NCBI GenBank assembly: GCA_016875165.1
Contig: VGSF01000002.1
Location: 33,033-97,032, forward strand
Direction: 5' to 3'
From: Deltaproteobacteria bacterium
GTDB lineage: Bacteria > Desulfobacterota > SM23-61
DNA: 64,000 nucleotides
Shown piece by piece: positions 43,512 through 55,819 of the stretch. Below the pieces are notes generated by a model. It had not been told where the DNA came from. It was given only the letters and a program-made list of their open reading frames with translations, and did not search any database. Both the position numbers and the translations under genes were made by a program. Within the stretch, counting starts at the first letter, position 1. The number at the start of each line of letters is the position of its first letter.

Positions 43512-43958
43512 GTGATGGAGGCGCCAGCGGCTAAAATTCCCCAAGTTTCTTCTGCCTTGAAATGGGAGGATCAATGGGGAAGCTACAAGGCCCGCTGGGG
43601 AGTAGGGCGTATGCATTATATGGTTGACGCGGGCCTTTACGCCCTGGGCCAGCCCAACCATTCTTCCCCGGTTTTTGTAACGGCTAACTATAAGATGAGC
43701 TTTGACAGGCTGCGCCAGGCAGTCCCTGACCGGAATGCCTGGATTCTGGTTTTGGATACTAAAGGGATCAACGTCTGGTGCGCCGCCGGCAAAGGCACCT
43801 TTGGGACTGAGGAACTGGTCAGCCGAATCAAAACCAGTGGCCTGGAACGAGCAGCGGGGTTACATTTCAGAATAATTCTGGTGGGGTTTAATGCCCCGCT
43901 GGAATTTCTAACGGGGTTTACTGTCCGTTTGAGAGGACCACAGGCCATTCAATTTTGA
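43512..43958 (+). pseudogene. hgcA-like corrinoid-protein gene, C-terminally truncated (no TM domain)
   Basis: WGVGRMHYMVDAGLYALG...VFVTANYKMSFD...LDTKGINVWCAAGKGTFGTEEL contains the HgcA cap-helix signature N(V/I)WCA(A/G)GK. The ORF stops after ~148 aa, where HgcA proteins continue into ~5 TM helices. Confidence 0.6.
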
Positions 43959-44705: not shown

Positions 44706-45464
44706 ATGAAAAAAATTTTTATTATTCCATTATTAATAATATTTCTTTTGGGTTTTTCAGGAATCAGTGGTGGAACTCCAATAAATCAGGTTCCTTATGC
44801 ATCTTTGACGGGATCGGGGTTAGTAACATTCGATGATATTCCGGGTGGCTGGGCGCCTGGAACAAACTACGATGCGATAATTAAGTTTTATGAAGCCGAC
44901 TTTGGAGAACGATTTGTAGGACAAACTCTTTTAACAAGTGGTGATTTTGATATTCTTTCCGGTTCTCCAACGGGCCCCCTTAGCTTAGCTGCAGGGGCTC
45001 CCAACCAGAATTTGAATGTCTTTTTAGCCACCTCTGGTGGTATTACTTCGCAAGTTCTTGCTGGGTTAGGGCCAAAAGAATATCCAAATTTTAAGGCAAT
45101 TGGCGAGGGATCAATTGCTGTACTTTTCCATTATGATCAATCTGATTTCGGATTCAGGATTTTAGGCGGCAATGAGGGAGATGCTTATCTCTCCTTTTTC
45201 CGTCGAGATGGCTCATTAATTCAAGACATCACCCTGAGTGGTCTTAGCAATAGTACTTTCTATGGTTTTCAAAGAGAGGGTGGCATTAAAGATATTGGCG
45301 GGATATCGATTTATAACACTGATCCTGGCGGTATTGCTTTTGATTCTTTTATAGATGATGTACCAGCAGGAGCAGGTCAATCTGCCCCCGAACCCGCCAC
45401 CCTGATCCTTCTAGGTTCCGGTCTACTTGGGCTTGCTGGGTTCAGGAGGAAGTTTAAAAAATAA
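44706..45464 (+). CDS. PEP-CTERM sorting-domain secreted protein
   Basis: N-terminal signal peptide. The C-terminus is PEPATLILLGSGLLGLAGFRRKFKK. Confidence 0.85.
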   Translation: MKKIFIIPLLIIFLLGFSGISGGTPINQVPYASLTGSGLVTFDDIPGGWAPGTNYDAIIKFYEADFGERFVGQTLLTSGDFDILSGSPTGPLSLAAGAPNQNLNVFLATSGGITSQVLAGLGPKEYPNFKAIGEGSIAVLFHYDQSDFGFRILGGNEGDAYLSFFRRDGSLIQDITLSGLSNSTFYGFQREGGIKDIGGISIYNTDPGGIAFDSFIDDVPAGAGQSAPEPATLILLGSGLLGLAGFRRKFKK

Positions 45465-45717
45465 ATTAATATTCAAATGTCAAAGAACAAAGGCGGGGTC
45501 AGAAATGGCTCTGCCTTTTTTTTCCATGCTCCCTAACCCCGCTCCTTTCCTAACCTACAAGCTCCCTTCCCCAATTTTTCTCCAAATCTTTTTTTATAAA
45601 GTATGGTAATATTTACCCATAGGGAGCCTGGACCACATGGTGGGGATCTGTCCACCGACGTGAAGTCAATTAGGGTCAGCGCCTATGCACCGGCACGTAA
45701 GAAAGGAGGATCTGCCC

Positions 45718-46032
45718 ATGGAGGATAAACCAGTAGCAAATCCCATGGTAGTACTCAGGGAAGAATTTGATGACTGGGCAATCCTGTTTGATCCGGATAC
45801 AGCCCAAGCATATGGACTTAATCCTGTGGGCGTATTCGTATGGAAGCGGCTTGACGGCAACCACACCTTAAGCGAAATTTTACAGGAATTACGGGCAACC
45901 TGCGAGGATTCCCCGGCAGAAGCCAATGATCATATGAATAATTTTGTGAAAAAATTGGTGGAAAAGGGATTAGCGGGGTATGAGATAACCAAGGTGGATC
46001 ATCTCCAAATACCACATGGAGAACCAGGATGA
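45718..46032 (+). CDS. PqqD-family peptide chaperone (RRE)
   Basis: Start MEDKPVANP lies 8 nt after AGGAGG. LNPVGVFVWKRLDGNHTLSEILQEL pattern. ATGA overlap with the next gene. Confidence 0.75.
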   Translation: MEDKPVANPMVVLREEFDDWAILFDPDTAQAYGLNPVGVFVWKRLDGNHTLSEILQELRATCEDSPAEANDHMNNFVKKLVEKGLAGYEITKVDHLQIPHGEPG

Positions 46033-47144
46033 AGTTGATGGCCGCCCCCAGGTTTGTCGATATTGACATCATAAGCAAATGCAATCTTAAGTGCCTTTAT
46101 TGCGCCCATTTTACAAGCGCCGGGGATGTAGAAAGCGATCTGCCGACAGATGCATGGCTCAACTTCTTTGAGGAGCTTGGCCGCTGCGCGGTAATGATTG
46201 CATCTCTTGGCGGTGGTGAGCCGTTCTTACGGAAGGATTTAAAGGAACTGCTTCTGGGGATTGTCAAAAATCGGATGCGTTTCGCAATCTTGAGCAATGG
46301 CACGTTAATTACGGAAGAGATCGCTGCTTTTATAAAAGCAACCGGCCGGTGCAATTATGTTCAAGTCTCCATTGACGGTTCGGGCCCTCTTGCCCATGAG
46401 GTTTACAGGGGCGAGGGGAATTTTGAGCGGACAATGAATGGCCTAAGAGTCCTACAGAAGTACGGGGTGCCTGTTACAGCGCGGGTTACCATACACCGAC
46501 ATAACGTCCATGACCTTGAGGGGATTGCCAGGCTGTTACTGGAAGATACTGGGCTTCCGTCTTTTTCAACGAACGCGGCTTCCTATATGGGGCTGTGCAG
46601 GCAAAATACCGAGGAGGTGCAGCTTACCGTCGATGAAAGAACCCTTGCTATGGAAACTCTTTTAAAGCTAGGTAAAAAATACAACGGCCGCATTACTGCG
46701 AATGCCGGACCGCTGGCAGAGGCGCGGATGTGGACGGAGATGGAAAGGGCGCGAAGAGAAGGTAAAGAAAGCCTTCCGGGAAGGGGCTATTTGCGGTCAT
46801 GCGGCGGGGTGTTCAGCAAGATCGCAGTTCGTGCGGATGGGGTGATTGTCCCTTGTATCCAGATGGGCCACATTGACCTGGGGCAAGTGGAGGAGGACAA
46901 TCTCAGGGATGTCTGGCAGAACCATGCAGCGCTGAATTGTTTGAGACAACGGCAGGGTATTCACCTGGGTGATTTTGAATTTTGCGCGGGCTGTGTTTAT
47001 ATCCCGTTCTGTTCAGGGAATTGTCCCGCCCTCGCTTATAATCTCCTCGGCAAGGAAAACCATCCCAGCCCGGATGCATGTCTGCGGCGGTTTCTGGCAG
47101 AAGGAGGAAGACTGCCAATGGAACAAGCATTGGCATTGCTTTAA
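46029..47144 (+). CDS. Radical SAM / SPASM-domain peptide maturase 1
   Basis: CNLKCLYC (Cx3Cx2C). C-terminal SPASM Cys clusters CGGVFSKIAVRADGVIVPC and CAGCVYIPFCSGNCPA. Confidence 0.85.
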   Translation: MKLMAAPRFVDIDIISKCNLKCLYCAHFTSAGDVESDLPTDAWLNFFEELGRCAVMIASLGGGEPFLRKDLKELLLGIVKNRMRFAILSNGTLITEEIAAFIKATGRCNYVQVSIDGSGPLAHEVYRGEGNFERTMNGLRVLQKYGVPVTARVTIHRHNVHDLEGIARLLLEDTGLPSFSTNAASYMGLCRQNTEEVQLTVDERTLAMETLLKLGKKYNGRITANAGPLAEARMWTEMERARREGKESLPGRGYLRSCGGVFSKIAVRADGVIVPCIQMGHIDLGQVEEDNLRDVWQNHAALNCLRQRQGIHLGDFEFCAGCVYIPFCSGNCPALAYNLLGKENHPSPDACLRRFLAEGGRLPMEQALALL

Positions 47145-47227: not shown

Positions 47228-48325
47228 ATGACATCGGGAAGCTCTTCTTTTCCTCTCGGAATGGTCTATTTCTACCTCACCGAGGGGTGTAATCTCCGTT
47301 GCCGGCACTGCTGGATAAATCCGAAATACCAATCGGGGGATAGAGCCTCTCTGGCGCTGGATTTTGAGTTGTTCTGCCATATCATCAGGCAGGCAAAGCT
47401 GCTGGGATTAGACGGCGTGAAGCTTACCGGTGGAGAGCCGTTAATCCATCCGGATATAGACCGGATCCTAACTTTTCTAGGCTCAGAGGAGATAAGAGTT
47501 ACGGTTGAGACGAACGGATTACTCTGCACAAAGGAAATTGCCAAAAGCATAAGCAAATGCAAAACTCCCTTTGTTTCGGTGAGTCTTGACGGGGCAGAGG
47601 CGGAAACTCACGAATGGGTGCGCGGTGTAGACGGCTCATTTGAGGCGGCGATTCAAGGCATCCGCAACCTTGTAACTGCAGGGCTAAGACCTCAGGTCAT
47701 CCTGACGGTGATGAGGCGCAACAAAGACCAAATGGAAGGGGTTGTCCGTCTTGCGGAGTCGCTCGGCGCCGGCTCGGTAAAATTCAACATCGTTCAGCCT
47801 ATTTCCAGGGGTGAACACCTGAAAGAGGCAGGTGAGTCCCTAAGGATAAATGAGCTGGTGGAGCTTGGAAGGTGGGTAGAAAATATCCTCTCCAGGGACG
47901 CTAAACTACGTCTGATATACAGTCATCCCCCTGCTTTTAAGCCTTTAGGTAATATCTTCGGTAAAGAAGGGGACGGTTGTGGGATATGCAGAATACGTAA
48001 CATCATAGGGGTATTATCGAACGGTTGCTATGCGATGTGCGGGATAGGTGAAACGGCGCCCGATTTAGTCTTTGGACAGGCTGAAAGGGACTGCCTTGAG
48101 GAGGTATGGAATGATACTCCTTTGCTGCTTGAGCTTCGCAAGGGACTTCCGGAGAGACTGGGAGGCATTTGCGGGGGTTGTGTCATGAAAAGGCTCTGCC
48201 TGGGGAACTGTATTTCCCAGAACTATTATAGCAATAAAAATTTGTGGGCTCCGTTTTGGTATTGTGAGGAGGCGCGGAGCGCGGGGCTGTTTCCGAAAAG
48301 CAGATTGGAAGAAACCGCTGGTTAA
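47228..48325 (+). CDS. Radical SAM / SPASM-domain peptide maturase 2
   Basis: CNLRCRHC (Cx3Cx2C). SPASM clusters CGICRIRNIIGVLSNGCYAMC and CGGCVMKRLCLGNC. Confidence 0.85.
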   Translation: MTSGSSSFPLGMVYFYLTEGCNLRCRHCWINPKYQSGDRASLALDFELFCHIIRQAKLLGLDGVKLTGGEPLIHPDIDRILTFLGSEEIRVTVETNGLLCTKEIAKSISKCKTPFVSVSLDGAEAETHEWVRGVDGSFEAAIQGIRNLVTAGLRPQVILTVMRRNKDQMEGVVRLAESLGAGSVKFNIVQPISRGEHLKEAGESLRINELVELGRWVENILSRDAKLRLIYSHPPAFKPLGNIFGKEGDGCGICRIRNIIGVLSNGCYAMCGIGETAPDLVFGQAERDCLEEVWNDTPLLLELRKGLPERLGGICGGCVMKRLCLGNCISQNYYSNKNLWAPFWYCEEARSAGLFPKSRLEETAG

Positions 48326-48438: not shown

Positions 48439-49368
48439 ATGAACGGTTATTTTCTCAGGCTGTCAGACGGCCAGGCCTGGCAACTTATGGCGCCCCCGGG
48501 GAGAAGAGAAGCGTCTGATTTTTTAAAAAAATTTGCTTCCATAATGGAATTGAAGCCCTCCGGGCCATACGATATTGAAAAAATATTGTTTTGCGGCCAG
48601 GATGATTTCCTTTCCATCAAAGACGGCTGTACGAAAAAATACCTGGGTTCTGGGTCGGGGGAAGGCGATAATGGATGGTTTGTGTATGACCACAAAAATC
48701 TAAGGGTTTGGAATCACGCCCAGATCCCCGAGGTGATCTGTGAAATATGCGATAACGGCAGGGATGACGTAGAAATCCTAAATATGTGGTTTGCCCTGCA
48801 ACCAATTTTTCAGAAAGCGCAAAACAGAGGGGGGCTGCCCATGCACGCTGCCCTGCTCGAACTGGCCGGGAAGGGAATACTTATATCTGCTCCGGGGAAT
48901 ACTGGCAAGTCTACCTGCTGCCGCCGCGTCCCAGGTTACTGGAAGGCTCTTTGCGATGATGAGACCCTCATTGTGCACAGCAAGAAGGAAGGTTACCGGG
49001 CACATCCTTTTCCAACCTGGAGCGATTATCTGTGGAGAAACTCGCAAAAGAGGTGGCCTGTAGAATCCTCAGTCCTCCTTTCGGCAATCTTCTTTCTGGA
49101 ACAGGCTGAAGCAACCGAAATTTTAGCGATCGGTAAAGGTGAAGCAGCAGCATTGATCAATCAGTCAACCAACCAGGTATGCGAGAAGTTCTGGAGACCA
49201 TCAGATAAAGCAACCAAGACCATGCAGGTGAAAAGGCTCTTGGATAACGCTTGCGAAATGGCCAAGAAAGTGCCAGCCTATAAGCTACGGGCCAGCTTGA
49301 ACGGCAGGTTCTGGGAAGAAATAGAACGGGTATTACGGGTGGCCCAGGGGATTGAACAACTGGGGTAG
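48439..49368 (+). CDS. HPr-kinase-related P-loop protein (ScmC/HprK-like)
   Basis: HAALLELAGKGILISAPGNTGKSTCC resembles the HprK C-terminal kinase-domain P-loop. Confidence 0.6.
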   Translation: MNGYFLRLSDGQAWQLMAPPGRREASDFLKKFASIMELKPSGPYDIEKILFCGQDDFLSIKDGCTKKYLGSGSGEGDNGWFVYDHKNLRVWNHAQIPEVICEICDNGRDDVEILNMWFALQPIFQKAQNRGGLPMHAALLELAGKGILISAPGNTGKSTCCRRVPGYWKALCDDETLIVHSKKEGYRAHPFPTWSDYLWRNSQKRWPVESSVLLSAIFFLEQAEATEILAIGKGEAAALINQSTNQVCEKFWRPSDKATKTMQVKRLLDNACEMAKKVPAYKLRASLNGRFWEEIERVLRVAQGIEQLG

Positions 49369-49563: not shown

Positions 49564-50226
49564 ATGGACGAGGTAAAGGCAAAGGAAACGCATCTTGGAG
49601 AGGGTGCTTCTCAAGCTCGGGGCTGGCCTGGTTTAACTTACTCCGGGCCGAGCATGCATCCGATTTTCAAAGCCGCTGATTGGCTGATCGTCCGCCCTTA
49701 TGCAAAAAAAGAAATAAAAGCAGGTGATGTGGTGGTTTTCCGTCGCCCTGGCGAAGTACATAGAGTTGTTCACAGGGTTGTGGAGGCCAACATATCGGGT
49801 ATTATTACCCGGGGTGATAATAACAATACCAATGACCCATGGATATTAAAATCCGAAGATATTATCGGGCGTGTGGTATCCGCAAAGAGAAGAAACAAAA
49901 CCCTTAAAGTGCATGGTGGTAAGACAGGCATCCTGTTGTCGATAATATGGAGGGTAAAGAAACTCTTCGCCAATAGATTATCTTTGGCATTACATCCTGC
50001 CTATCACGGGCTCGTGAATGCTGGCTTCTTTCACAGATGGTTATCCCCTTTCGTGAGAGCGAAAATACTGTATTTTCATCGGCCTAATGGCACGGAGATG
50101 CAACTGGTTCTTGGTCGGCGGGTGATCGGGAGGCGCATGCCTGGAACAACCAGGTGGCTGATAACTCGGCCTTTCAGGTTGTTCATCGATGAGTCTTCAT
50201 TACCGCAAAGTAATACTGATGGTTAA
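49564..50226 (+). CDS. S26-family (Sec11/archaeal-type signal peptidase I-like) peptidase
   Basis: GPSMHP (Ser nucleophile), HRVV, RGDNNNTND. Confidence 0.7.
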   Translation: MDEVKAKETHLGEGASQARGWPGLTYSGPSMHPIFKAADWLIVRPYAKKEIKAGDVVVFRRPGEVHRVVHRVVEANISGIITRGDNNNTNDPWILKSEDIIGRVVSAKRRNKTLKVHGGKTGILLSIIWRVKKLFANRLSLALHPAYHGLVNAGFFHRWLSPFVRAKILYFHRPNGTEMQLVLGRRVIGRRMPGTTRWLITRPFRLFIDESSLPQSNTDG

Positions 50227-50357: not shown

Positions 50358-51593
50358 ATGGATGAGAATAGAATCAAGGAATTATTAGTCAGTTGCCTAA
50401 GAAGGGAAGATGGCAGCTCAAAGATTGAGAAACTAAGCAAACTATCGACCCCTGATTGGGAAACCATCGTAAAATCATCAATCAGGCACGATCTTGCCCC
50501 ATTGTTTTATCACAGGTTAAAACCTCTTATACCGGAGATACATTTGCCTGCAAGCATTGCCGACAAATTAAGGGAAATTTATCTGCGTTCTGTGGCAAGA
50601 AATATTCGCATGTACAAGCAGCTATCGGAGTTCATAATGGCGCTTTGGGGCGCAGGGATTCAGGTAATCCCTTTAAAAGGGGCGCACCTTGCCAAATTCG
50701 TGTATGGGAATGTCGCTTTAAGACCGATGTCCGATGTGGACCTCCTTGTAAGGAGGGAAAATATGCCAAAGGTATGTGAAATATTAGTTGGAAAAGGATA
50801 TACCCATGCCGGGCATTTAAATATTCACGAAACCTGCGAGGTATTCCAACACCTTCCCCCTTTTGAGAAACCCGGGGGATTGGCTATGGAACTTCATTGG
50901 AATCTCGAGACTCCGACTTATCCCCTTAGGATTGATGTGGAAGGATTATGGGAAAGGGCCCAAATTTCCTCATTAGACGGCATCGATGTGCCTACTTTAT
51001 CCCCGGAAGATCAATTACTCCATCTTTGCCTGCATGTTTCCCTCCACCATGGTTTTGCCAACGGGCTGAAAGCATTATGCGATATAAACGAAATCATTGA
51101 ACGTTACAGGGGCAACATGGACTGGGGAAAAATAATAGATAGAAGCCAAAAATGGGCTGCAAACAAATGCGTGTTTATAACCATGCTCCAGGCAAAAAAC
51201 CTCATCGGCGCGCCAGTTCCCGATGCCGTATTAAATCAACTCAAACCTGAAAAATCAGATTATTCCAATATGGAAGCGCTTTCTAAGGAACTTATTTTTA
51301 GGGGCGGCACCAACCTTTCACCTCATATTGCTCGCTTATGGGGGCAATACCGGGGCATTGACAAATTGAAGATTTTTATCAAGCGGGTTTTCCCGGTCAT
51401 CGAAGAGATGGCTGCGATGTATCCTGTTTCATCAAGATCCATGAAGGTTTACCTATACTACCCAAATCGTTTAAAAGATCTCCTTTTTAGACATGGCCGC
51501 CATGTAAAGCGTTTATTCCTGCATGACCAAGAAATGTCAACCTGCCTTCAAATTGGAAACATGCAAAACAGGCTAAAGGACTGGCTTCTATAA
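50358..51593 (+). CDS. Uncharacterised nucleotidyltransferase family protein (NTP_transf_5-like)
   Basis: 411 aa with MSDVDLLV and an ELHWNL pattern recalled for the PF14907-type family found in lasso/HprK-associated clusters. Confidence 0.55.
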   Translation: MDENRIKELLVSCLRREDGSSKIEKLSKLSTPDWETIVKSSIRHDLAPLFYHRLKPLIPEIHLPASIADKLREIYLRSVARNIRMYKQLSEFIMALWGAGIQVIPLKGAHLAKFVYGNVALRPMSDVDLLVRRENMPKVCEILVGKGYTHAGHLNIHETCEVFQHLPPFEKPGGLAMELHWNLETPTYPLRIDVEGLWERAQISSLDGIDVPTLSPEDQLLHLCLHVSLHHGFANGLKALCDINEIIERYRGNMDWGKIIDRSQKWAANKCVFITMLQAKNLIGAPVPDAVLNQLKPEKSDYSNMEALSKELIFRGGTNLSPHIARLWGQYRGIDKLKIFIKRVFPVIEEMAAMYPVSSRSMKVYLYYPNRLKDLLFRHGRHVKRLFLHDQEMSTCLQIGNMQNRLKDWLL

Positions 51594-51784
51594 ATTTGGC
51601 CAAAGCGCTCGGCATAGGCCTTCTTTTCGGCTCGAACAAAATGGGCTTTCAAAAAGGGTGGTAAAAGTTGACTGGGTATGCTACAAAATGATTTATAAAT
51701 GACCCTTATTTTCGTGAGCTTTTTTAAAGGAAATTGCCGTGAGAGCCAGAGAGCGCATAGCTGAGCTATGAAAGGAGGAGGAAT

Positions 51785-51937
51785 ATGGAGAGAAAGGCCG
51801 AAGACAACAAGGAGAAAGAGGAGAAGATGACATATGAGCCTCCGGAGTTAATTGATTTGTCAGGAGAGGTAGCAAAGGGGGAATGTTCTTTTGGATCAGT
51901 GCCTAATGGTGGATGCACCGCGGGGGTCCTTAACTAA
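51785..51937 (+). CDS. Candidate RiPP precursor peptide (51 aa; not in the supplied ORF track)
   Basis: MERKAEDNKEKEEKMTYEPPELIDLSGEVAKGECSFGSVPNGGCTAGVLN. A strong RBS AAAGGAGGAGG ends ~4-5 nt before the ATG. Charged leader, YEPPELIDL motif, and a Gly/Cys-rich 19-aa C-terminus. Confidence 0.55.
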   Translation: MERKAEDNKEKEEKMTYEPPELIDLSGEVAKGECSFGSVPNGGCTAGVLN

Positions 51938-52410
51938 GCATCGAGGCACAGTCCGTGCACATGGACGCGCTAAAGGCGCTTGGGTTCAAGGCCTGGACCC
52001 GGGTATATATGCCAGATGGCCGGCGCCGGTAGCCCACCCGCGCCATCTATGGATGTACTCTCCGAGTCGCCTCATCTTCCGGTGGGGCGGCTCCTCCCCA
52101 TAAAGCCGGAGAGCCTTTTGAAGAAATTTTCAAGTGTTCTTTCAGCCTAAGGAAATCCTCCCCAGTCCGCAATGAAAGCTGAGAAGATCGATACGGAAGT
52201 ACGGGCAGATGTCTCCGGTGGTCTGTGTGAAGTGGGAAGGCGGAAAAGACCCTGATTCGGAACAATAAATAAAGACAGTCCCATATTTATTGAAATTTCC
52301 AAAATAGGGGCGTACGTCAAGGGGGACGCGTCCGGGGGAATATGGGGATGTCCTCCCTTTTTTGGCCTCAAACAATTTAACCAATGCCTTCTGCTCGATG
52401 ACGTTGCTTA

Positions 52411-52655: not shown

Positions 52656-53378
52656 TTATTTAACAATATGTTTGTCGGTGCTCTGGGGTTCCTTATCAGA
52701 AAGTTTTTGCAATTTTTTTAGGATGTCATCCAGATAGCTCTCGTATGTGGCCAGGCGGGTTTTTGTTTTACACACCTCTTCGACCAAATGCGCCATTTTT
52801 ATGGCAATAGAAACATGGTAGGCAAAGCTGGAAAAGAATTGCAAACTTTTCTCGTTGAAACTGTACTTTTCATTGATTAGCACCGCACTGAGTACCCCTT
52901 TCATTTTCCCCTGAGGGGGAATGGGAATACTCATGAGGGAAGTGATTTTCGATTCTTTTCCCCTATATTGAAAAAATCCCGAGAAATCCTCTGGTTGTCG
53001 CAACAACACTGGGCTGTTCTGCTGGAAGGCTTTATAGGCTACCTCCTTTTCTTCATTTAGACCTACCTGCCCATATAGTGGATTAAAAGCATAGATAAAA
53101 TGGGTTTCCAGATTCTCGTTCTTCTCATCCACGAAAAAAATTGTAGAGCGGTCTGCCTTCAGGCAGTGCAGGGATTCCTGGGCAATGACTTCAAAGATTT
53201 TGTTTAGGTCTTTGTGGGCGTTGATCATAGAACTAATTTTCAAGAAAGCTGCCTCCAGACGCGTAACATACATCAACGCCTTCTTTCCCTTAAATTCTTG
53301 ATTGATAATCTCCCGCTTTGACAATTGTTTTAAAATGTTCTTAAAAAACATTTTATATGAACTTCCTTTTAACAACAT
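52656..53378 (-). CDS. GAF-domain-like protein
   Basis: 240-aa ORF. IFEVIAQESLHCLKADRSTIFFVDEK and the following segment are GAF-like. Weak assignment. Confidence 0.45.
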   Translation of the reverse strand: MLLKGSSYKMFFKNILKQLSKREIINQEFKGKKALMYVTRLEAAFLKISSMINAHKDLNKIFEVIAQESLHCLKADRSTIFFVDEKNENLETHFIYAFNPLYGQVGLNEEKEVAYKAFQQNSPVLLRQPEDFSGFFQYRGKESKITSLMSIPIPPQGKMKGVLSAVLINEKYSFNEKSLQFFSSFAYHVSIAIKMAHLVEEVCKTKTRLATYESYLDDILKKLQKLSDKEPQSTDKHIVK

Positions 53379-54856: not shown

Positions 54857-55279
54857 TTAAACGCCTTTTTCTCTTTGGAATAAGGAGTTCAAGGCTTCAA
54901 AAAACTTACCGATCTCATTATCCAAACTGGACCGGATTTGGGGCATGGCCAGGAGGAGTTTCTTAAGCTTTTGCCAATCGAGTTCAAACCCGTACCTTTT
55001 ACGAAATAAATGGCGGAACCCAAGATACTCACGAAGTTTCTTTTCCATCCTGGCAGTTATTACCTGCGGTCGCAGGCCGGGTATATCCAGAGTCATCTGG
55101 TGCAGGAGTTCGCTGTGCCATTCTTCTCCCACAGGTAATCGTTTGTCTACCTCTTTGGCAATACTTTCGAAAATTTTTTCAATACCCGTATAGAAATCGT
55201 GAAGAATCGATCCACCTGCGCGGACGACGTAGTTCGAAGGCTGTCTCTTTAAAAGAGGGTTTTTCTCTTTATCCAGCAT
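54857..55279 (-). CDS. HEPN-domain protein (HepT-like putative toxin)
   Basis: 140 aa with LGFRHLFRKRYG (R-x4-H-like HEPN region), downstream of a minimal nucleotidyltransferase. Confidence 0.55.
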   Translation of the reverse strand: MLDKEKNPLLKRQPSNYVVRAGGSILHDFYTGIEKIFESIAKEVDKRLPVGEEWHSELLHQMTLDIPGLRPQVITARMEKKLREYLGFRHLFRKRYGFELDWQKLKKLLLAMPQIRSSLDNEIGKFFEALNSLFQREKGV

Positions 55280-55326: not shown

Positions 55327-55674
55327 TTACGCAAGGCGCAATCCCTCCTTCAAAGCTCTATTTTTAATGGATGGCCACGCCTTCTCATAGGGAATTAGGT
55401 CTACATGAAAGGGATAGGAAATTAGTGAGATATCGGCCAGGATTTCAAAATATCTTTGATCTTCCAGCCCTCTAACGATCAAGTCAATATCTGTTCCTAT
55501 CCACAAAAAATCTGGCCTCCAGATGAGAGAACCAAAAAGAATTACTTCTTCAGCTTGATACTTCTCCTTAAGAGTCTTTGCCACCGCTTTGGCCTTCTTG
55601 ATAGCGAACTGTCTCCTTCTATTTTCTTCTTTCTGCCTTTCTTTCCAGATGCTGAAATATTCAGGATTTTTCAT
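55327..55674 (-). CDS. Minimal nucleotidyltransferase (MNT-type antitoxin)
   Basis: VILFGSLIW...GTDIDLIV (GS...DxD). The start is uncertain (ATG at 55674 or 55683; the listed 55737 is unlikely). Confidence 0.65.
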   Translation of the reverse strand: MKNPEYFSIWKERQKEENRRRQFAIKKAKAVAKTLKEKYQAEEVILFGSLIWRPDFLWIGTDIDLIVRGLEDQRYFEILADISLISYPFHVDLIPYEKAWPSIKNRALKEGLRLA

Positions 55675-55819
55675 AAGATACATTTTAGCATAACTCAGAA
55701 AAAAATAAAAAAGGCAATGTTTGTGTGTCCCTTTCATCCTTGCTTAATAAAAAAGGAGATGGTAAATTATTGGTTGTAACTCGCTGAAAAAGTAAAATAT
55801 TCTGGAGGATACATCTGCC

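Follow-up and report, generated by a model that had tools for sequence, protein, structure and literature searches.

The analyzed stretch of DNA, a window of 64,000 nucleotides, contains a SynChlorMet (Scm) gene cassette followed by a small open reading frame (ORF) for a peptide (Table 1). The genes upstream of the ORF were named with Pfam and NCBIfam equivalog models. ScmC, ScmD, ScmE, and ScmF all scored above the cutoffs of their models, and their genes are located on the strand of the peptide gene, within 6.1 kb upstream of it. The initial annotation had reported two radical SAM (rSAM)/SPASM enzymes upstream of the ORF, and these are ScmE and ScmF, whose scores are well above the NCBIfam cutoffs. 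ScmE contains a CxxxCxxC motif and the full 7-Cys SPASM motif, and ScmF contains a CxxxCxxC motif and the full SPASM Cys pattern. Among the flanking genes, neither an exporter or transporter gene nor an immunity gene adjoining the cassette was found with Pfam and NCBIfam.

Table 1. Features of the Scm cassette and of the adjoining peptide gene in the window
Feature	Position	Strand	Basis or remark
PEP-CTERM protein gene directly 5′ of scmD	44706..45464	+	cassette membership doubtful
scmD, discrete PqqD-family RRE protein	45685..46032	+	TIGR04248, 134 bits (cutoff 100); PF05402
scmE, radical SAM/SPASM	46029..47144	+	TIGR04250, 603 bits (cutoff 400)
scmF, second radical SAM/SPASM	47228..48325	+	TIGR04251, 571 bits (cutoff 400)
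scmC, P-loop protein, PEPCK/HPr-kinase-like fold	48439..49368	+	TIGR04249, 304 bits (cutoff 125)
soluble Sec11/SipW-type S24/S26 signal-peptidase-I-like protease	49564..50226	+	TIGR02228, 71 bits (cutoff 51.9)
PF14907 "uncharacterised nucleotidyltransferase" gene	50358..51593	+	PF14907, E 2.6e-60
conserved 40-nt block 5′ of the peptide gene	51663..51702	+	alignment of relatives
Shine-Dalgarno sequence AAAGGAGGAGG	51771..51781	+	kept in 11 loci
scmA-like precursor peptide gene	51785..51937	+	50 aa + stop; ten homologs; hhalign 98%
leader, codons 1–32	51785..51880	+	near-invariant in 11 sequences
leader parts: charged N-terminal extension 1–14; family motif Y17-E-P-P-E-L-I-D-L25; junction A30-K31-G32			
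predicted core, codons 33–50, ECSFGSVPNGGCTAGVLN	51881..51934	+	two C-x-x-G units

A second locus (L082) carries the same eight genes in the same order as the window, namely those for the PEP-CTERM protein, ScmD, ScmE, ScmF, ScmC, the protease, the PF14907 protein, and the peptide, and its enzymes are 78–90% identical to those of the window. The PEP-CTERM proteins of the two loci, encoded directly 5′ of scmD (551-1357 in L082), share 73% identity; none was seen in the 80 other scmC loci. In L083 and L086, the 3′ end is arranged as in the window.

The genes flanking the cassette are housekeeping or unrelated ones, including those for a GAF protein, a HepT/MNT pair, and his and hem genes. The stand-alone GAF-domain protein gene (52656-53378, − strand) is convergent with the peptide gene and lies 0.7 kb 3′ of it. 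The genes for a HepT-like protein (54857-55279, − strand) and a Pol-beta/MNT-type nucleotidyltransferase (55327-55737, − strand) look like a HepT/MNT toxin-antitoxin pair. Upstream of the cassette, an ORF of 148 aa (43512-43958, + strand) resembles the mercury-methylation protein HgcA, but solely in the N-terminal region that binds the corrinoid (NF040863 positions 1-119 of 325; 182 bits, cutoff 275). The small ORFs downstream of this gene encode neither a transmembrane half nor an HgcB-like ferredoxin, and the small ORFs near it and 3′ of the peptide gene gave no NCBIfam matches.

The peptide ORF consists of 51 codons, that is, 50 amino acid residues (MERKAEDNKEKEEKMTYEPPELIDLSGEVAKGECSFGSVPNGGCTAGVLN) and a stop codon; the length of 51 residues given initially had counted the latter. 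Its tail contains exactly two Cys residues, as had been described, but these are Cys34 and Cys44 with a spacing of C-x9-C rather than C-x11-C. The Shine-Dalgarno (SD) purine run, followed by AAT-ATG, has two overlapping GGAGG cores that end 6 nt and 3 nt 5′ of the Met1 ATG, so that the strong ribosome-binding site of the initial annotation was found in place, but not at the distance of about 4–5 nt given for it. An AGGAGG-type purine run at this position was kept in 11/11 homologous loci, and the ORF with its strong ribosome-binding site is real. The gene lies on the expected strand and at the expected position; the gap in front of it, however, is 191 nt instead of 190 and is counted from the end of the PF14907 gene (51593).

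A search of 5.8 billion proteins yielded ten homologs of the peptide, all of which were metagenomic and 49–53 aa long. Scanning metagenomes with the peptide alignment confirmed only a single locus, and the homolog DNA was taken protein by protein. The DNA of all ten homologs was compared with that of the window by the Nei-Gojobori method (11 sequences, 55 pairs). The peptide frame was open in all 11 sequences, including one with an in-frame codon insertion (L089). Residues 1–32 were near-invariant (MERKPEDNKEKxEKMTYEPPELIDLAGEVAKG), whereas nearly all positions of the C-terminal 17–21 residues varied, with only Cys34, Cys44, and Gly47 fixed among these close relatives. The pS, pN, and pN/pS values were 0.28, 0.028, and 0.10 for the leader and 0.56, 0.51, and 0.90 for the core, respectively. 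Among 31 leader codon columns, 12 were invariant, 12 showed synonymous changes only, and seven showed amino acid changes, and third codon positions held 16 of the 24 variable leader nucleotides. The mean pairwise DNA identities of the leader, core, upstream non-coding DNA, and downstream non-coding DNA were 93%, 50%, 82%, and 71%, respectively, and the core DNA diverges faster than the adjoining non-coding DNA. Because of its low pN/pS, third-position bias, and high DNA identity, the leader is constrained at the protein level. The peptide ORF is protein-coding and evolves under purifying selection, and the comparison with relatives that had been suggested initially came out on the side of conservation and not of drift. 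The peptide thus shows the conserved leader, variable core, and coding-level selection of a RiPP precursor.

Two other origins of the open frame were rejected. A chance ORF was ruled out by the codon-position bias and the pN/pS values, and an ORF on the opposite strand (51766-51918 or 51693-51875) was ruled out by the variation at the third positions of the + frame.

The DNA on both sides of the gene is also conserved. The 40-nt block upstream was kept in all relatives having that sequence, mostly in the form TTGTCA-N17-TACAAA, and is possibly a dedicated promoter or operator. A sigma-70 scan did not score the window copy of the block as a promoter and returned no promoter in the window, and a terminator scan returned none directly 3′ of the peptide ORF. 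About 100 nt 3′ of the gene (51938-52040) were conserved at 71%; RNAalifold gave no covariation support for this block (covariation term +2.49), and Rfam gave only sub-threshold chance matches around the ORF.

To place the peptide among other Scm cassettes, the ScmC alignment was used to retrieve 80 genomic loci, which belong to methanogens and to anaerobic bacteria of many phyla. ScmC has more than 1100 homologs, with sources in Thermodesulfobacteriota, Nitrospirota, Chlorobi, Omnitrophota, Aminicenantes, and methanogens. A profile based solely on the window clade detected small same-strand ORFs in 20/80 scmC loci in the first pass. Iterated to convergence, the profile recovered 92 ORFs, which came from 64 of 81 sources (the window and 63 of the 80 scmC loci); 86 of these ORFs were on the scmC strand. 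A motif scan added six loci, and related small ORFs were thus present in 69/80 scmC loci; in eight of the 11 loci with no related ORF, the sequence upstream of scmC is shorter than 1.1 kb. The genes usually follow the order ScmD-ScmE-ScmF-A-ScmC-protease, and about half of the loci include PF14907. The peptide gene is mostly located between scmF and scmC, and in a few loci (the window, L065, and L023) it is located at the 3′ end.

The family peptides share a common plan. The N-terminus is short and often Lys/Glu-rich, and the leader motif is [YW]-x-x-P-x-L-[IV]-x-L; the window peptide has it as YEPPELIDL, and no other motif is as conserved within the family. The motif and an A-x-G junction are common to 86 family members, and the first Cys follows 1–2 residues after the junction. 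A Gly precedes the first Cys by two or three positions in 68/86 peptides, and position −2 relative to this junction Gly is occupied by a small residue in 71/77 peptides. The core is built of units of the form C-x-x-G-[ST]-x-[AP]-x(2-4) with a modal spacing of C-x9-C; Gly occupies the +3 position in 92% of terminal and 75% of internal units. Family-wide, the peptides extend 6–8 residues beyond the last Cys. The window peptide matches all of these features, with two units. An hhalign comparison of the window clade with 22 cassette-adjacent peptides gave a probability of 98% (E 1.3e-13). The clade profile had 23 matches among 1.84 billion representative proteins, of which 22 were 51–84 aa long and one was 266 aa long, and the architecture was the same in all 12 of these sequences that were read. 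By these profile and motif comparisons, the peptide was shown to be homologous to small ORFs encoded with scmC/D/E/F in many anaerobic bacteria and archaea.

Several variants of this plan were observed. Some cassettes contain arrays of 3–8 paralogous ScmA genes, additional copies of scmC, and long cores in which the number of Cys residues reaches 19 (L006 10792-12481 and 18484-18915; L039 5481-12272; L062 4820-9158), and CC pairs in some long cores depart from the C-x9-C unit. The 266-aa protein, P0203, consists of an ScmA-like leader, about nine KCQPG-type units, and a FlgD-Ig/T9SS sorting-like domain (PF13860, E 1e-10; PF18962, sub-threshold), which suggests a secreted or surface-bound variant. 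In L084 (678-836), a window-type peptide gene lies beside a DDE transposase gene on a 3.3-kb contig that carries no Scm gene; it has a different upstream sequence and may be an orphan or mobilised copy.

The start codon was considered in the light of this family. If translation began at Met15, which the initial annotation had raised as the possible true start, the product would be an ScmA-type precursor beginning with MTYEPPEL, and codons 1–14 would be mainly a 5′ leader or SD region. Many canonical ScmA peptides indeed begin only 2–6 residues before the Y/W of the motif, and a GAGGAG is found 3 nt 5′ of the Met15 ATG (GAGGAG-AAG-ATG). However, the strong SD before Met1 is the one kept in every locus compared, codons 1–14 remain open despite the in-frame insertion in L089 and are conserved at the protein level, six of their eight variable sites are at the third codon position (binomial p about 0.02), and Lys/Glu-rich N-termini of 10–20 residues occur in other family members as well. 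In view of the conserved SD, the maintained frame, and the third-position changes, a start at Met15 is less likely than one at Met1, and we consider it rather unlikely. Met15 may, judging from the sequence, serve as a second start besides Met1.

NCBIfam already defines the SynChlorMet precursor as TIGR04252 (SCM_precur_ScmA; cutoff 35 bits). Neither the full-length window peptide nor its Met15 form matched this model at E<=10, whereas a sister peptide, P0010, matched model positions 1-34 with 22.7 bits (E 8e-5). Of 11 cassette-adjacent peptides from other loci, four matched the model, all below the cutoff (15–32 bits), and seven did not match. Since only these four matched, and all below the cutoff, the model is narrow, and the comparison shows that it misses most of the predicted precursors. 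The window peptide does not reach the cutoff score for ScmA, but it is encoded together with ScmC/D/E/F and is homologous to small scmC-adjacent ORFs by profile, hhalign, and motif features. With TIGR04252 ScmA, it shares this genomic setting, a [YW]-E-x-P-x-L-[IV]-x-L leader, the A-x-G junction, and a core of C-x-x-G-[ST]-x-A repeats. It differs in its extra conserved, charged N-terminus of 14 residues and in having only two units, and its gene, unlike those of canonical ScmA peptides, lies 3′ of the protease and PF14907 genes and not between scmF and scmC. Where the sources name such peptides, the name given is "hypothetical protein." In the literature searched on SynChlorMet/Scm genes and on PF14907 with RiPPs, no experimental study was found, and the rSAM-RiPP overviews consulted do not mention the Scm system. 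Because of the missing TIGR04252 match, the "hypothetical protein" naming, and this absence of papers, the window ORF is placed in a bioinformatically defined family, of which it is a divergent and so far unannotated member.

We therefore favor, with a probability of roughly 85%, the reading that the ORF encodes a divergent ScmA, the precursor for the SynChlorMet cassette in a minimal two-unit form, with the maturation route proposed below. The proposal that it is the precursor peptide of the adjacent cassette is borne out by the conserved leader with its hypervariable core and by the homologs found beside scmC. Alternatively, the ORF might be a decaying or orphan ScmA remnant that no longer serves as a substrate, or else an unmodified small Cys peptide with, for example, a metal-binding or regulatory role. 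The minimum number of units, the location outside the canonical scmF-scmC position, the failure to match TIGR04252, and the orphan copy beside the transposase in L084 would agree with such an origin. On the other hand, the leader is under strong purifying selection, both Cys residues and a +3 Gly were kept in 11/11 sequences, the position and the cassette were kept in L082, L083, and L086, and two-Cys ScmA peptides are encoded at canonical positions in L055, L059, and L063, which makes this alternative highly improbable. The genome from which the window derives may encode an additional canonical multi-Cys ScmA elsewhere. Under the preferred reading, the lineage of the window would represent a minimal two-unit version whose precursor gene has been relocated to the cassette's 3′ end.

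In the proposed route, ScmD, as a stand-alone PqqD protein, would bind the leader motif Y17–L25 and present the core to ScmE and ScmF; the conservation of YEPPELIDL fits recognition by an RRE. ScmE and ScmF would then act on each C-x-x-G unit, namely C34-S-F-G and C44-T-A-G. It had been proposed initially that each of the two enzymes installs exactly one sactionine- or ranthionine-type thioether, one per Cys. This would match the two Cys residues and two rSAM/SPASM enzymes at the window locus, and the best solved relative of ScmE is the sactisynthase SkfB, with both Scm enzymes carrying full SPASM motifs. However, family peptides encoded with the same ScmE and ScmF pair contain 2–19 Cys residues, most often 3–5; therefore, there is no one-enzyme-per-Cys relation, and the enzymes would act repeatedly on the repeat units. 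Furthermore, ScmE and ScmF scored only 71–84 bits against the PapB, StsB, AlbA, and SkfB models (cutoffs 300–850), similarity to SkfB is confined to the rSAM core, and PqqE, AhbD/NirJ, MftC, BlsE, and SuiB, which perform other chemistry, are about equally close, all far below the family cutoffs. One thioether per enzyme is thus a quite improbable arrangement.

Instead of dividing the Cys residues between them, ScmE and ScmF probably perform two different reactions. Since the first Cys is near the start of the core and the last one has 6–8 residues after it, each Cys should find its partner downstream in the same unit, and the modified partner would be within about 6 residues on the C-terminal side. 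The reaction is most likely the formation of a small thioether ring within the unit, or else some other radical reaction centred on Cys, the thioether chemistry as such being a guess. The Scm system resembles sactipeptide and ranthipeptide precursors (SkfA/SkfB and PapA/PapB) in its Cys core, repeated Cys units, and rSAM/SPASM maturases, and also in RRE-dependent leader recognition, which is predicted for Scm. It differs from them in having two different rSAM enzymes, a discrete PqqD protein, a kinase-fold protein, and a signal-peptidase-I (SPase-I)-like protease. ScmE and ScmF score far below the model cutoffs of the characterised thioether-forming rSAM families.

The remaining cassette proteins may act on the peptide as well. 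In the AF2 model of ScmC (pLDDT 90), the top Foldseek matches were to PEPCK (E 1e-7, TM about 0.5), and its sequence matches to HprK were weak. H136, K157 (P-loop), D173, and D174 of ScmC were invariant among 22 homologs, and the protein combines a kinase fold with the conserved His-Lys-Asp-Asp set of HprK-like kinases. A His-Lys-Asp-Asp motif has been described for the HprK-like kinases by which lasso precursors are tailored (PMC9266682). By analogy, ScmC probably phosphorylates the peptide, which would thereby be tailored further, and the PF14907 protein, whose gene is found within 9 kb of scmC in 31/65 loci, may act on it too. Lasso-tailoring clusters (PadeK/PsmK and PsmN; PMC9266682, PMC6993621) resemble the Scm cassette in combining a PqqD-type RRE, a kinase with an HprK/PEPCK fold, and an "uncharacterised nucleotidyltransferase," although the PF14907 protein and PsmN are likened solely on their descriptions as "uncharacterised" NTP- or nucleotidyltransferases. 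Unlike those clusters, the Scm cassette has neither a lasso cyclase nor a B2 protease. The lasso kinases PadeK and PsmK act on a conserved C-terminal Ser, whereas no conserved terminal Ser was found across the Scm peptide family; the peptides of the window clade end in N, G, A, or T, and that of the window in Asn.

The best PDB match of the protease was SEC11, and no hydrophobic segment was found in this protein. Its residues S30, H70, D85, and D91 were invariant among 63 homologs, and its gene adjoins scmC in 50/73 loci. Signal peptidases I follow a −3/−1 small-residue rule. On the basis of this rule, cleavage is predicted after A30-K31-G32, and the soluble SPase-I-like protease is probably the leader peptidase, which would remove the leader at this point and release ECSFGSVPNGGCTAGVLN.

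What the analysis adds for the window is the annotation of a gene rather than a new type of system. Scm cassettes occur widely in anaerobes. They regularly include the soluble SPase-I-like protease, whose likely cleavage site is the A-x-G junction, and the modified unit is predicted to be a short C-x-x-G module. It is conceivable, though we would put this at less than even odds, that the cassette represents a RiPP class with undescribed chemistry, in which two different rSAM/SPASM enzymes, a kinase-fold protein, and in some cassettes a PF14907 protein process each C-x-x-G unit before a cytoplasmic signal-peptidase-like protease releases the product. If so, the hypervariability of the core among close relatives would suggest diversifying selection on an antagonistic or recognition function, and no natural substrate for solving the Scm chemistry would be simpler than the two-unit window peptide. 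Its 18-residue core is a practical substrate for reconstitution.
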